Shown piece by piece: positions 57,266 to 63,144 of a stretch of 64,000 bases of DNA. Position 1 is the first letter of the stretch; every line of letters starts with the position of its first letter. The notes under the pieces are model-generated. The model was not told where the DNA came from. It ran no database searches and saw only the letters and a list, made by a program, of their open reading frames with translations. This DNA comes from Octopus vulgaris (Eukaryota), in NCBI GenBank assembly GCA_951406725.2, contig OX597825.1, positions 71,610,001-71,674,000 on the forward strand, given 5' to 3'. The translations under genes and the position numbers were made by a program.

Positions 57266-58098
57266 GAATAAGAAAAATACAAAAATCCTTGTATAGAACT
57301 GTACGCTTCACAGTTCCAGCATCGCGGTGTTTGGCTGATGTGCGCATGCTCACATGCCCGAAATAAGAAGCTGCTCGCTAAGGAGAGAGAGCTCTGTGAA
57401 CGACAGTGCCGACCCCGGTGATCCGGAGAAAGCTAGTGTTTCTTTTTGACTCCGGGTGTGTTATGCTCAAAAACGTGTTTATATTCTTGAATGTGATAAA
57501 GTGTAGAATTAGATTATTTTCCTGCTTCCAGCTACAGTGTTGCTGTCAGGATTTGAAAAATTGGGCAGATTTCCACCCCCTTATTTTGTGATTTAGTGGG
57601 GATTTTTGAAAAACAAAGGGGAATTTGCGGCGGTGTTCAGTGAACAAATTAAACATACTACCCGGCAATGACTAAAACACGAACCGATCAAGTTTATGTA
57701 TAAATTTTCTTTTTATATGTTTGTTTCCTTTTGTTACACATTCATATCTATGTGTTTGCGTATGCCAAACTACATCCCCACTCTTGGCACTATTTTGTTA
57801 GTGAACAGTACAACTGTGTGTAAAGTATATAATGTATCACTACGCTGAATGTCGTCGTCCGTGTATCATGAATAGTCAATAAACACGTAACCATAACAAT
57901 GGTTTTCATTTGGTTGTCTATCCTATCAGAACGCAAACTACACACAACACCTTTTACACAATACTAAAACAACGGCTAAAATTTTTCTGAAGCAGCATCC
58001 TCCACTAACTTTATCTGCGAGCACCCACTGCTACTGACATACCAGGAAAATCCATTCAACACTTGTCAGACATTTGGAAACTTCTGAGTAGGTTTTCG

Positions 58099-58835
58099 TT
58101 TTTTTACATAAGTAATGAGAGCGAAAGAGACTAAGAGGAAGCGATTTTACGACGAGAAGGTTTCACTTTGAAGTCGGCCTGTGTGTGTTTGATGGGGTGT
58201 GGGAGACAGACAGTATGTTGTGTAAGTGAAGTGCTTCTGTTAGTATGTGCGAAGAGACAGACATACATATACACATACACCGAGTAAAAAATTACGATGA
58301 ATCGGCCATACATACATACATACACACACACACATACATAGATACATACACACACACACATACATGCAGACATACATATACACATACACCGAGTAAAAAA
58401 TTACACTGAATCGACCATACATACATACACACATACATACATACACATACATAGATACATACACACACACACATACATGCAGACATACATATACACATAC
58501 ACCGAGTAAAAAATTACGATGAATCGGCCATACATACATACATACACACACACATACTTACACACACACACATACATAGATACATACACACACACACACA
58601 TACATGCATACATACATATACACATACACCGAGTAAAAAATCAGTTATCTCTCTCTTTCACACATTACTCTCTCTGTCTCTTCGCACACACTAACAGAAG
58701 CACTTCACTTACACAACATACTGTCTGTCTCCCACACCCCATCAAACACACACAGGCCGATTTCAAAGTGAAACCTTCTCGTCATAAAATCGCTTCCTCT
58801 TAGTCTCTTTCGCTCTCATTACTTATGTAAAAAAA
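58099..58835. repeat. Foldback structure: ~160-bp inverted arms around a tandem array
   Basis: Arms at 58099-58262 and 58674-58835 with few mismatches; interior has four 'catacaccgagtaaaaaa' anchors at ~110-125 bp spacing separated by (CATA/CA)n. Confidence 0.88.
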
Positions 58836-59089: not shown

Positions 59090-59364
59090 GGTACTACTTA
59101 AGAAGAGTGGTCCCGGTGCGCGCACTCGCGTACTCGCGCATCCGCGCTAGCTAGTCGTGACTAGTCGATCCTTACTTTGTGTTTTTGTGTTTCATTTACT
59201 TTGTTTTAAAAAAACTATTTACTTTGTGTAAAAAAAATTATTTATTTTGTGTTTTAATTACTTTTGCTAGGCAGTCGTTGTAGGATCAATTAGTCACGAC
59301 TAGCTAGCGCGGATGCGCGAGTACGCGAGTGCACGCACCGGGACCACTCTTCTTAAGTAGTACC
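59090..59364. mobile_element. MITE with ~80-bp TIRs and 8-bp TSD (Merlin-like)
   Basis: TIR ggtactacttaagaagagtggtcccggtgcg... is mirrored at 59282-59364. TSD agatgctg at 59082-59089 and 59365-59372. Truncated copy at about 52248-52350. Confidence 0.85.
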
Positions 59365-59540
59365 AGATGCTGAACGAGGACAGAGGTTGCCGAATCTCAC
59401 AAAAAAGCTCCACATGCTGCCTGCAAGTGTTGTGAAAAACGATGTTGCAGATGAACTGCGTAGACGAACGGATTGTGGCATCTGGTTTGTCGAGATGTCC
59501 TAACATGGTGCGCTGCGCAGCCAAAGAAGAATTTGGCAGA

Positions 59541-59654: not shown

Positions 59655-60747
59655 GGTAGAACGATACAGTTCTTCAACATAAACAGGGCTCGATAATAAT
59701 TAATTAGGTGCAACATGTGCGCAGTCTTTATTGGGTTCTGGGCATAAAAGGACAAATTCCTTTTTTGCGTCGGTAGCTGTTGAAACCGCAGCTAACTTTT
59801 GTCCTTGAAGTGTCATTCTCTTCCATCAAATTGGAATGAAAGCACTGCGCCTCAGGAAAGAACATTATGAGACAGAATGGTTGATCTAACGAATATCATG
59901 AGTGTTTGCTTTTAGTTTCTTTGTTTTTTTTTTCGCTCTGTATAAGTACTGAATAAAAATATTGGAATAAGCTTCATTTCGTAGTTATACACACAGACAG
60001 ACGTACACATACATACACACGAATCAACAAAAACGTCTGTTTGTTCGCATGAACTGTTAGAATTAGCGGGGAAAATGTCTCAAATAATATCTTGAATAAT
60101 ATCTTGGATAATATAAAAAATAACAGAGGATAATATAGTATGTATTAAATATAATGACTGCAAAAAAAGTTGGGGGGTTAGTCATTACTGGAATGTTTTT
60201 GGTCATAAGTCTGCAGTACCTTGAACTAAAGAAGAACAACACACTCACGTGCGTTCATATCAGCATAGAAGTAAGCGTAAATATTATCATGTGTAAGAGA
60301 ACTTTAAATAGTAAAATTAAAGAGTTACAGCTAATGACTCCTTTCCGGTATCTATTCCACCGATGTTGAAATCAGTAATATTAATCCATGGTGTACATTT
60401 AATCAGAACCGATCTTTATCAACAGGGAGTCAAATTCAAAGTAATAGCGTTGAGAGGAAATAAGTTGTTTCAAAAAGAATGACGCTAAACAAACGCGATA
60501 TTGCCAACTGTCTGACATTTTCATGAAGGATGGATATTAAAATGAACATAATAGATAAGAATCCCGCTTTTTGAAGATATATAAAATCAGTAAGATTTTT
60601 GGTTTTCATTTCTCGTGTGCTTATTTGCATAATTCGGTATATATACAATTATATATTTCTTCATGTTATATTTTTCTATATTCCTCTGTCTCGCTCATCC
60701 AATCAAATATTGTTGACGATTTAAATTTCATTAATTATGGTGGAATT

Positions 60748-63144
60748 ATGAAGCTACAGACATTGCTAAGCACATATGTTTTAACCGTCCTTCTACAACA
60801 TTCAGACGAAGAACAACTAAGTTCAGATTCCGATACGTATCTGACCGTACAACTTCTGATAGACCTGGAAAGTCCCGAACAGCAGAAATTGGATCGCTTT
60901 TTTAACATTGAAACCATGATTGATTTATCGACCAAGAAATTTTATTTTTTCGAAGATTCAGTAACTCTGCGCCTTTACGTTCCCAGCTCAAAGATCGGTT
61001 ATCCCATTCAATTTTTGCAATTTGTCAACAATCGCCCATACGAAATAGTTTTCAACGAAACCTGTACTAAAAATGGAAATATGGACTATTTCTGCCAGCA
61101 GACTAATTCAGACAGCAATTCGTACAAGGTCAAAGGGTACTGTTGTCCTGAAAGTGTTCAGATTCGTTGTATTTTCTATGATCCTTTATGGTATTCTATT
61201 AATACGCTCGACGACCCTGTAATCATTCAGGGTATAAAAATGGAGGTCTTCACAAAGGAAGCAGGCGGCGAATCAGATGTTCTAAAGAAAAAAATCGCCG
61301 AAAGCAATCGTTTTCTTGTCAACGGCAAAACTATCGAGAAGGAAGACGATAAACTTTATTTCACGGCCCGCGTTCATAATCTGGCTAACACTACTTCTTC
61401 TGCTTGTAAAAACCCATTTTGTCCAAAGTTAAATTATTTATTGGTACCTCTTTCAAGAATGCCATCAAACGTCAGTCTACAGATATTGGAAGGTGTTCGT
61501 GAATACTTGCTTATTAAGAAGAAAGATTTTGATATAAAAGGAATAGTGTGCGCTACAACTGGAATATCTATCGGTTCTGTTACAAGAAAGAGCGACAGAT
61601 GTTCAGACACCTTTGTAAAAGATTGCTCCAAAACTCAGTATGACAAAAATGAGGAGATAAAAATCAGCGGTGGCAATATAAAGAAATCAAAATATTTTCT
61701 ATCGAGGTTTGCCTTACCTGTAGCCCCTTATATTGGGAAAATTCCTGGCTGGAAATCTAGTACGACATTGTTATTTGTAGCTAATCCAAAGCGTTCAGAT
61801 AAAGCGAAGCTGGAAATTATTATAAATCTCAATAAAAACCTTTTTCCTTTTGCAATTCCATTAATAGGTAAAGGTTCTATCAGAACTATATACAGCCATC
61901 CATTTACAAATTATGACACCCAGTATGAGATTGGAGTAAGTATTCTTAACATAGGGCTAGTTACAGGAAGCTTTAAAATATCATTAAACTGTGAACCGAA
62001 AAATCAGTTCAAGACTTTAATATTGATGCCATTTCAAGGACAAATAGTGAGATTTTATCAGAATATTGAATTAACTATTGAAAAAGAAAGCGCGAACACT
62101 ACCTCTAAAAACACCAATAAAAAACTGTTACCATCGCTGTGTCGAATAGAATTGTTGAATGAAGATGAGAAAACAACGCAATCAAAAGAAATTATTTTAG
62201 AAGAAAGTAAAATATGCATATGTTTAGTCGGTTGTAAATGTATTTGTGATCAACCATATACATGCGAAATGATAGACAAGAGAACCACCACTGAATCTCC
62301 TGTCAAAGACTTTCCTCATGAGAAACTCTGGGTTATTGTGTGCACAATTTTATTTCTACTTATGCTACTCAATTTACTAAAATTCTCTTTTGGCTTTTGC
62401 TTCCCAATTCCCGTTGGCGAAGCAGGGCTATGTGTTTTTATAACAAGTAGCTTTCAGTGTGAATATCTCGAAAAAGATCTTCAGCAAAAAGCAGTAGAGT
62501 ACGATGAAGACGGTTACCCAGTGCATCCGAAAACTAAAGAAAGAGTGCGTGCTTTGCAGTACAAGACAATGGGTGCTCTGAATTTATTATTCTTCTTTTA
62601 CTTGCCATTTATTGTCTTTCATTGGTTTTTAGCACGAAACAAGATAAATAAAAAGAAAAAGGATATAACGTGGGACAAGTTAGAAACAACTGTTGAAATG
62701 GTCAAAGAAGGCGATGACAACTTTTGTTTGCACCGTGCTTTGAAAAGAGCATCATGTCAAACAATATCATCAGATCAGTCCGAATTGCCAGACCCCGTCC
62801 AAGAAGAAAGGAATTCTATATTAGAGGAATATGGTAGAAGAATATATAAAGGGAAATGTGGTGAGGAGTCAGTGAAACACCCGTGCGAAAAGTCTCCGAA
62901 ATTATCTAAGGATTGCCAACGAAAGAGTAAATTGAAATGTGTGTTTAATAATTTTCGAAAAACAGAGAAAGAACCTAGTTCATGTGAAAGTTCAGACTGT
63001 CAGAAAAGTATTACGGATAATCTTTCAGCATGTATCATACCTGATATTACCCAAACTATTCGCGACGGTCACGAGAGTAGTTCATCTGAGCCTTCTTCAT
63101 GTTCATCATTCAAGAGAACTCCTAAAAAAGATAAATGTTCTTGA
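60748..63144 (+). CDS. HAP2: HAP2/GCS1-like class II fusogen (fusexin) homologue, single exon, 798 aa
   Basis: Uninterrupted ORF; the first in-frame ATG (60748) is followed by a signal-peptide-like stretch MKLQTLLSTYVLTVLLQHS. Family motifs occur in canonical order: YPIQFLQFVNNRPYE (cf. YPLxYxxxxNxKPxE), GYCC, CIFYDPLWY (cf. HCLxFDxLWY), LLIKKKDFDIKGIVCATTGIS..RC..DC..Q (cf. LDGxECNKIGVS..C..SCLxNQ), domain III NIGLVTGSFKISLNC and CRIELLN, Cys cluster CICLVGCKCIC, TM segment, Cys/Ser/Lys-rich tail. Identified by motif recall, not by database search. Confidence 0.85.
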   Translation: MKLQTLLSTYVLTVLLQHSDEEQLSSDSDTYLTVQLLIDLESPEQQKLDRFFNIETMIDLSTKKFYFFEDSVTLRLYVPSSKIGYPIQFLQFVNNRPYEIVFNETCTKNGNMDYFCQQTNSDSNSYKVKGYCCPESVQIRCIFYDPLWYSINTLDDPVIIQGIKMEVFTKEAGGESDVLKKKIAESNRFLVNGKTIEKEDDKLYFTARVHNLANTTSSACKNPFCPKLNYLLVPLSRMPSNVSLQILEGVREYLLIKKKDFDIKGIVCATTGISIGSVTRKSDRCSDTFVKDCSKTQYDKNEEIKISGGNIKKSKYFLSRFALPVAPYIGKIPGWKSSTTLLFVANPKRSDKAKLEIIINLNKNLFPFAIPLIGKGSIRTIYSHPFTNYDTQYEIGVSILNIGLVTGSFKISLNCEPKNQFKTLILMPFQGQIVRFYQNIELTIEKESANTTSKNTNKKLLPSLCRIELLNEDEKTTQSKEIILEESKICICLVGCKCICDQPYTCEMIDKRTTTESPVKDFPHEKLWVIVCTILFLLMLLNLLKFSFGFCFPIPVGEAGLCVFITSSFQCEYLEKDLQQKAVEYDEDGYPVHPKTKERVRALQYKTMGALNLLFFFYLPFIVFHWFLARNKINKKKKDITWDKLETTVEMVKEGDDNFCLHRALKRASCQTISSDQSELPDPVQEERNSILEEYGRRIYKGKCGEESVKHPCEKSPKLSKDCQRKSKLKCVFNNFRKTEKEPSSCESSDCQKSITDNLSACIIPDITQTIRDGHESSSSEPSSCSSFKRTPKKDKCS

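Follow-up and report, generated by a model that had tools for sequence, protein, structure and literature searches.

A HAP2/GCS1-family gene of Octopus vulgaris that lacks the cd fusion loop

The locus and its features

The window analysed here is a stretch of 64,000 nucleotides of the Octopus vulgaris genome (assembly GCA_951406725.2, contig OX597825.1, positions 71,610,001 to 71,674,000), and it contains a gene of the HAP2/GCS1 family whose domain II tip has lost the cd loop. The gene is an intron-free open reading frame (ORF) in a single exon at 60748-63144 (+), which runs from ATG to stop, encodes 798 amino acids and matches Pfam HAP2-GCS1 (PF10699) with an E value of 5.7e-22 and 78.4 bits against a cut-off of 27.4. 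HAP2-GCS1 was the sole family found in a Pfam scan of the 798-residue protein at E up to 10, in which the EFF-AFF profile (PF14884) was not matched. We refer to this gene as copy A; its profile match, fold and descent place it within the HAP2/GCS1 family. Its features are given below, with the type of evidence in brackets.

60748..63144 (+): HAP2/GCS1-family gene, copy A, 798 amino acids, single exon (open frame; Pfam; Foldseek)
60748..60810 (+): likely signal peptide (first Met of the frame; judged by eye; DNA 96% identical to the start of the paralogue)
61042..61062 (+): strand b with Glu99, equivalent to Chlamydomonas E126, and the N-glycan sequon N103-E-T at the domain II tip (alignment)
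61063..61095 (+): bc connection C106-C116, with Met112 and Tyr114 not conserved (variants in contigs of other organisms; alignment)
61135..61194 (+): strands c and d, connected by a turn of 4 residues, with the loop Arg and both loop-disulfide Cys absent (alignment; AlphaFold2)
61579..61626 (+): remodelled ij loop, with a conserved Phe replaced by Val278, a conserved Gln replaced by Lys281, one extra residue, and Phe289-Val290 between C285 and C293 (alignment)
61627..61665 (+): beginning of helix alpha2, with 3 residues fewer than the paralogue has and a conserved Trp and Asp replaced, in copy A only (alignment)
61873..62199 (+): domain III, Ig-like (model strands; Z 13.0 and root-mean-square deviation (rmsd) 1.9 over 92 residues to Plasmodium HAP2 domain 3)
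62215..62265 (+): Cys-rich stem C490-C506 (6 of 6 Cys conserved across animal HAP2s)
62326..62637 (+): transmembrane helix, conserved juxtamembrane motif and second hydrophobic segment (hydropathy; ratio of nonsynonymous to synonymous substitutions, dN/dS; present in animal HAP2s)
62638..63141 (+): short tail without the C-terminal domain of bivalve and nemertean HAP2s, P0003 and the paralogue (alignment; the domain matches only at G000:C12:71711281-71711586)

The hydropathy of copy A peaks at residues 524-555, and the membrane module at 62326..62637 is the most constrained part of the gene; over the likely signal peptide (60748..60810) the hydropathy scan gave no 19-residue window above 1.6. 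The motif after the helix and the second hydrophobic segment (62380-62637) occur in all aligned animal HAP2s and are absent from two protist rows, and this second segment makes the topology of the tail uncertain. A Cys pair, C220 and C225 (61405-61422), is found in both octopus copies, with a similar pair in P0003 and none in bivalve and nemertean HAP2s, and is likely a clade-specific disulfide.

Loss of the cd loop

The segment 61135-61194 (+) translates as GYCCPESVQIRCIFYDPLWY, in which C132/C133 lie at 61141-61146 and C141 at 61168-61170, leaving 7 residues between C133 and C141. The full HMMER search returned 91 proteins at E up to 0.001, and our alignment A2 comprised 57 rows, namely 55 HMMER proteins and both genomic copies. 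The cd spacing could be scored in 30 rows, where the CC pair and the strand-d Cys were aligned, the remaining 27 being partial or without those Cys. Only three scorable rows have a spacing of 7 residues (copy A, its paralogue and P0003); one tick protein has 11, and the other 26 have 27-408. All 26 long-spacing rows contain the third Cys and 25 of them the Arg-Gly/Ser motif, and the cd segment holds no Cys in copy A versus at least two in each of the 27 scorable rows that are not loop-less. Counted by hand, this segment has 44 residues in the solved HAP2 chain of Chlamydomonas, 34 in 7s0k and 31 in T. cruzi, and the cd connection of copy A is 31 residues shorter than in two bivalve HAP2s.

A first-pass annotation of this DNA had proposed a loop-less HAP2 tip at 61135..61194, and the ORF, with its 7-residue C133-C141 spacing versus 27-408 in 26 of 27 others, bears this out. 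Its details also hold. The third Cys, the partner Cys, the hydrophobic loop and the Arg that it described as lost are all absent in alignment A2; the Glu of RPYE is kept as Glu99; the change from HC to RC corresponds to the replacement of His by Arg140; and the several tens of residues that it gave for characterised HAP2s agree with the 31, 34 and 44 of the solved chains. A normal-length loop displaced elsewhere at the domain II tip was also looked for in the AlphaFold2 model and none was found, so the loss stands.

The HAP2 loop varies within a frame of conserved Cys and an invariant Glu-Arg bridge, and the canonical network consists of the E126-R185 salt bridge together with Q379, as passages of two structural papers describe (PMC5332557, PMC6089408). 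Copy A has no hydrophobic cd loop of about 30 residues, no Glu-Arg bridge with its Gln network and no loop Cys pair; lacking these three defining features, it is not to be classed as a loop-inserting HAP2 fusogen. We did not accept the tick model P0011 (Rhipicephalus; 11 residues, both Cys, no Arg) as a further natural example, given its large gaps elsewhere. The arthropod HAP2 models P0032 (Ischnura) and P0011 are likewise without the loop Arg motif, which may reflect gene-model errors or further losses. A literature search, mostly outside subscription journals, found no published account of a cephalopod HAP2 or of a natural loop-less HAP2; in the accessible text of a cuttlefish genome paper 'hap2' means haplotype 2 (PMC13218726), and the accessible part of PMC8055269 yielded no mention of HAP2.

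The AlphaFold2 model of copy A, built from a 46-row alignment, has a mean predicted local distance difference test (pLDDT) of 74.4 and a predicted template modelling score (pTM) of 0.62. It places strands at residues 130-133 and 138-144 with a 4-residue turn between them (block pLDDT 85). Foldseek ranked eight HAP2 chains at the top (best E 8.7e-21), followed by Fsx1, hantavirus Gc and EFF-1, and VIA-align to 7s0k gave Z 15.5 and an rmsd of 8.5 over 398 residues. As modelled, copy A is an otherwise complete three-domain fusexin fold with a stem and a membrane anchor.

Remodelling of the domain II tip

To the loss of the loop are added several changes around it, and by the alignment the tip is rebuilt, not just cut. 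The alignment has 71 columns with conservation in 80% or more of 43 other HAP2s; of these, copy A keeps 42, copy B (the paralogue) 44 and P0003 54. Both loop-disulfide Cys were lost together, and all 18 ectodomain Cys are common to copies A and B. The Gln that holds the Arg in Chlamydomonas is present in 40 of 42 other HAP2s and is replaced by Lys, Lys and Asn in A, B and P0003, respectively. The strand-b Glu is kept in A and B and is Asn in P0003. The segment following strand b has become shorter, and both A (N103-E-T) and B (N-Q-T), but not P0003, carry a glycan sequon at the tip. Copy A alone has lost 3 residues and a conserved Trp at the start of helix alpha2.

The suggestion that the R of QIRC might substitute for the lost salt-bridge Arg did not hold. 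R140 occupies a position that is His in 36 of 36 other HAP2s and still His in B and P0003, so that it is private to copy A, and P0003 has lost the Glu as well. Lys281 would be the better candidate partner for Glu99. We also discarded a hydrophobic bc loop as compensation, since Met112 and Tyr114 vary between species, with bc-loop variants at 61082, 61083 and 61087 in contigs of other organisms (among the 40 of 522 variants listed). In the ij loop, the two Cys are separated by 7 residues that include Phe-Val in all three loop-less proteins, versus 6 residues in 51 other matched records, and an ij-loop Phe occurs in none of 42 other aligned HAP2s. The Phe-Val pair, which lies on a predicted short helix (residues 287-294), is a possible substitute membrane anchor.

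Evidence against an assembly error

An assembly error that removed the loop has nothing in its favour; reads showing one had been named in the first-pass annotation as a way to overturn the claim. Contigs of three of four runs (X15, X1, X20), one of them maybe the source sample, bridge the tip gap-free. For organism C (X9), a contig without gaps spans 60700-61337. In organism B (X5) one contig of about 91% identity crosses the whole gene with 6 gap letters, all near the 3' end, and in organism E (X13, about 85%) a contig covers the tip, with 13 of its 23 gap letters listed. X9, X5 and X13 each have a second, paralogue-like contig that aligns gap-free over 61132-61229, the X10 contigs do not extend over the tip, and the lengths of the X5 and X9 indels are divisible by three. 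The paralogue and P0003 have the 7-residue spacing as well, and contigs from several runs and organisms show it too. These data show that the deletion is genuine and refute an assembly error, to which we assign a negligible probability.

A tandem paralogue and the search for a loop-bearing HAP2

Copy B lies on the same strand some 18 kb further downstream, with its start at G000:C12:71688978, and its tip reads GYCCPESLQMHCILYDPLWY. The ectodomains of A and B are 54% identical, with about 0.5 synonymous substitutions per site (dS). Copy B spans G000:C12:71688978-71711598 (L004-L007), past the end of the window, and consists of the loop-less tip followed by a very long Ser/Arg-rich repeat tail, which ends in a conserved molluscan C-terminal domain. 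This giant tail is split over several frames (2815, 2050, 447, 661, 855 and 994 amino acids), with breaks that may come from assembly slips in the repeat. A 1.1-kb block of 85% identity is common to the two copies (window 60278-61375 versus L004 4508-5602), and their first 25 codons are 96% identical versus about 70% for the rest, which suggests recent gene conversion at the 5' end. The third loop-less protein, P0003, is a 1163-residue protein from sequence-read assemblies that is 33% identical to copy A and has the same 7-residue spacing. Elsewhere in the window, inspection by eye of the 26 frames of at least 110 amino acids in positions 1-56000 revealed no further gene. Upstream of copy A we noted, also by eye, two inverted-repeat pairs (58031-58240 with 58640-58830, flanking a CA- and TA-rich tandem array, and 59100-59180 with 59290-59365), which are probably mobile-element remnants.

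Paired HAP2 genes are known in Plasmodium, Leishmania and Dictyostelium, and in principle copy A could serve as a decoy for, or form heterotrimers with, a normal HAP2 that has the loop and is encoded at another place in the genome, as the first-pass annotation had suggested. A genome search with the family profile gave two matches, both of them the loop-less copies (10 of 10 candidates scored), and a search with a loop-bearing bivalve HAP2 gave three, namely copy A, copy B and the distant C-terminus of B (with a stricter first screening step). Used alone as the query, the bivalve loop segment had no match in the genome, in a search that had no positive control. Profile and protein searches found no loop-bearing HAP2, although a six-frame search could miss a gene with many exons. 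Searching the genome for the EFF-AFF family also gave no match, and its positive control was silent too, so that it carries no weight as evidence. Word-indexed protein searches gave only copy A, P0003 and one distant HAP2; they missed named relatives that the HMMER search found and are uninformative on absence. The decoy or partner idea needs a loop-bearing HAP2, and the only other copy found is itself loop-less, which leaves this explanation very improbable.

Evolutionary history and selection

In a tree of 34 of the 46 rows of alignment A4 (rows covering at least 78% of the ectodomain, insert columns dropped), the three loop-less proteins form one clade with support of 100/100 and a long stem. 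A quick tree of 39 rows, with the tip omitted and protist rows at the root, groups this clade with bivalve HAP2s with a Shimodaira-Hasegawa-like approximate likelihood ratio test (SH-aLRT) value of 93, a placement weakened by long branches (the loop-less stem is long, support 93-96). The topology indicates that the cd-loop deletion is old and common to the whole clade. A single deletion in the clade ancestor would have been followed by a tandem duplication, giving rise to a fast-evolving short copy A and a giant copy B. Retroposition of an exon-skipped mRNA was also considered as a conceivable origin. The branch of A is longer than that of B in both ectodomain trees (0.64 versus 0.20 with 34 rows; 0.37 versus 0.27 with 39 rows), and A is without the conserved C-terminal domain that B still carries.

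The dN/dS between A and B, a single pair, is 0.59 (NG86) or 0.80 (YN00) in the ectodomain and 0.37 (NG86) or 0.48 (YN00) in the membrane module; these ratios indicate that selection on the two copies is purifying but weak. Identity to P0003 is 38-42% in the trimmed tip, 25-33% in the ij/alpha2 region and 44% in the membrane module, and the corresponding values between Pecten and Solemya are 54%, 56% and 37%. Judging from these identities, constraint is moved off the fusion core yet is still on the tip. The high ectodomain dN/dS of the A-B pair, the long branches and the retention in copy A of just 42 of 71 conserved columns would fit a decaying gene under relaxed selection, whose ectodomain has no current role. 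The 798 codons are open, however, the indels of X5 and X9 are multiples of three, Cys were lost pairwise and the 7-residue spacing is held at 33% identity; we consider decay a distinctly improbable explanation.

An insect HAP2 clade (P0039, P0048, P0054, P0057, P0058, P0060, P0065, P0073, P0076, P0082, P0086 and P0088) also departs from the canonical tip. All 12 rows are without nine domain I-II Cys positions of copy A, and the six named members are all Lepidoptera. This is a second, independent loss of the canonical tip. The clade keeps domain III, the stem and the membrane module.

Possible functions of the loop-less HAP2

The first-pass annotation had offered either a loop-less bilateral fusogen or a non-fusogenic paralogue acting as adhesion protein, decoy or partner. 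The loss of the loop stood, the decoy and partner roles did not, and a third option, the ij Phe-Val, had been missed, as had the age of the deletion and its occurrence throughout a clade. A role in giant-axon fusion was considered as well (PMC12407032), but none of the present observations bears on it. The reading we favour, although we see it as evenly balanced between right and wrong, is that copy A is a non-inserting cell-surface protein which would act via protein contacts, not by piercing the partner membrane. It would probably sit on sperm (assumed from Hydra, plants and protists), where the blunt tip may serve adhesion or scaffolding, and membrane merger would fall to other machinery, with DCST1/2 as the leading candidate. 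We favour this reading because Chlamydomonas HAP2 without the loop Arg or the loop hydrophobics is folded and reaches the surface but cannot fuse, according to the text available for two studies (PMC5332557, PMC8289870). It is also favoured by the joint disappearance of the Arg, the loop disulfide and the Arg-holding Gln, by a P-E-S turn that is not hydrophobic, by variable bc Met and Tyr, and by a tip glycan sequon in both copies. Helix alpha2, described as a HAP2 hallmark in the accessible part of PMC6089408, is partly lost in copy A, and the ij/alpha2 region is less conserved to P0003 than the membrane module is, the reverse of the bivalve pair. Animals can retain HAP2 without a canonical tip, since lepidopteran HAP2 genes persist without nine of the domain I-II Cys positions of copy A.

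The genome also contains two DC-STAMP genes, both intact and both with RING-like motifs at the C-terminal end of the protein. One of them is matched to DCST2 at 0.98, and from their sequences they are likely DCST2 and DCST1. Both are single-frame genes with a coding region apparently intron-free like that of HAP2 (L011 560-2863, +; L012 683-2770, -). A 2026 preprint, in the portion available, puts forward the speculation that fusion by DCST proteins was added to HAP2 or took its place (PMC13192892). The persistence of lepidopteran HAP2s without domain I-II Cys, together with two DCST-like proteins encoded in this genome, makes a non-inserting role feasible. Several observations weigh against it. 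The trimmed tip is among the best-conserved parts of the ectodomain (62% between A and B; 38-42% to P0003), 18 of 18 ectodomain Cys occur in both copies, as a working fusion machine would need, and the two loop-less copies are the sole HAP2 genes found in the genome. P0003 has no tip sequon. Passages of the respective papers report that EFF-1 fuses with an acidic cd loop (PMC8784728) and Fsx1 with a cd loop of 6 residues (PMC9259645), and the gained Phe-Val could insert in the place of the loop. Moreover, the occurrence of DCST1/2 lends weak support, given its partial overlap with lineages that have HAP2 (PMC13192892, in part), and the siting on sperm is assumed from Hydra, plants and protists (PMC2766252, in part).

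Alternatively, the HAP2 of this clade may be a rebuilt fusogen, either through an ij Phe-Val anchor or acting bilaterally in the manner of EFF-1 with the short and the giant copy as a pair, a proposal that we regard as tentative. In the bilateral form, resembling EFF-1/AFF-1 or Fsx1, the protein would be on both membranes and trans trimers would zip them together with no inserting loop; copies A and B could be the pair, in gametes or somatic cells. The full fusexin fold, stem and anchor of copy A and the keeping of two diverged, adjacent copies in several organisms agree with this, as do the bilateral action of EFF-1 with its acidic cd loop and the finding that Arabidopsis HAP2 fused cultured cells only bilaterally (both from accessible text of PMC8784728), and the requirement of Leishmania HAP2-2 in both partners. 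Fsx1, however, still requires its short uncharged loop, as stated in part of PMC9259645, whereas the turn of copy A is P-E-S; helix alpha2 is shortened in copy A, and egg or somatic expression of the HAP2 copies is an assumption only. We judge bilateral fusion unlikely, and more doubtful still is a one-sided fusogen whose lengthened ij loop inserts Phe289-Val290 into the egg membrane, like Phe250 of hantavirus Gc. For the latter speak the 7 residues with Phe-Val in 3 of 3 loop-less proteins versus 6 in 51 others, the absence of an ij Phe from all 42 other HAP2s, and hantavirus Gc itself, whose full fusion activity makes use of a Phe in a longer ij loop (PMC5082683, in part). The same partial source indicates that hantavirus Gc still requires its cd-loop Trp, and the Phe-Val of copy A, on a predicted helix between two Cys, may just fill the pocket of the lost Arg. 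If the rebuilt fusogen were true, this would be a natural HAP2 fusing without the supposedly invariant loop and salt bridge, with an EFF-1-like mode independently reached from HAP2.

Descriptions of every HAP2 studied so far treat the cd loop and the Arg-Glu bridge as invariant and essential. The only HAP2s detected in this clade are loop-less, with the fold under selection, which would mean either a second, non-fusogenic job for HAP2 in animals or another route to fusion. Either outcome bears on what fuses animal sperm and egg and on the proposed hand-over from HAP2 to DCST1/2, and the loop-bearing bivalve orthologues offer a natural control for the loop-less HAP2.

Comparison with known systems

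Copy A shares with the solved HAP2/GCS1 structures (5MF1, 6DBS, 6E18, 5OW3, 5OW4, 7S0K) the three-domain class II fold, the bdc sheet and the ij-loop Cys, and it also has the strand-b Glu, the stem and the membrane anchor. It differs from them in its cd connection of 7 residues versus 31-44, in having no loop Arg, disulfide or Gln, in an ij loop that is one residue longer with Phe-Val, and in the apparent loss of an N-terminal Cys pair, where the alignment is weak. The nearest named relatives are the 'hapless 2-like' proteins of Solemya (KAL5009314.1), Pecten (XP_033735139.1), Mytilus (CAC5374079.1), Lineus (XP_064623729.1) and Tubulanus (XP_074662084.1), which have the juxtamembrane motif in common with copy A. 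These five bivalve and nemertean proteins keep a loop of 27-38 residues with the Arg and both Cys, unlike copy A, and the octopus gene differs from theirs in being one exon and tandem-duplicated.

Among the other fusexins, EFF-1/AFF-1 (PF14884) resemble copy A in fold (Foldseek E 2.3e-11) and in having no hydrophobic cd loop; they are a different sequence family, and bilateral fusion is shown for EFF-1 and only a possible mode of copy A. Fsx1 (7P4L) is similar in fold (E 1.1e-11) and in its very short cd loop. In contrast to copy A, it has a domain IV, and its fusion activity requires the 6-residue loop, which is uncharged and shaped by Ca2+, according to the portion available of PMC9259645. 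Hantavirus Gc has a lengthened ij loop with a Phe near the tip (PMC5082683, in part), but it is viral and keeps an inserting cd loop, so that the likeness is a structural analogy only. Finally, the HAP2s of Lepidoptera (Manduca XP_030027111.2, Galleria XP_031770018.2 and others) are also genes kept without the canonical domain II tip, which in these members of a separate insect clade is replaced by a long Cys-free sequence and not, as in copy A, trimmed to a turn.

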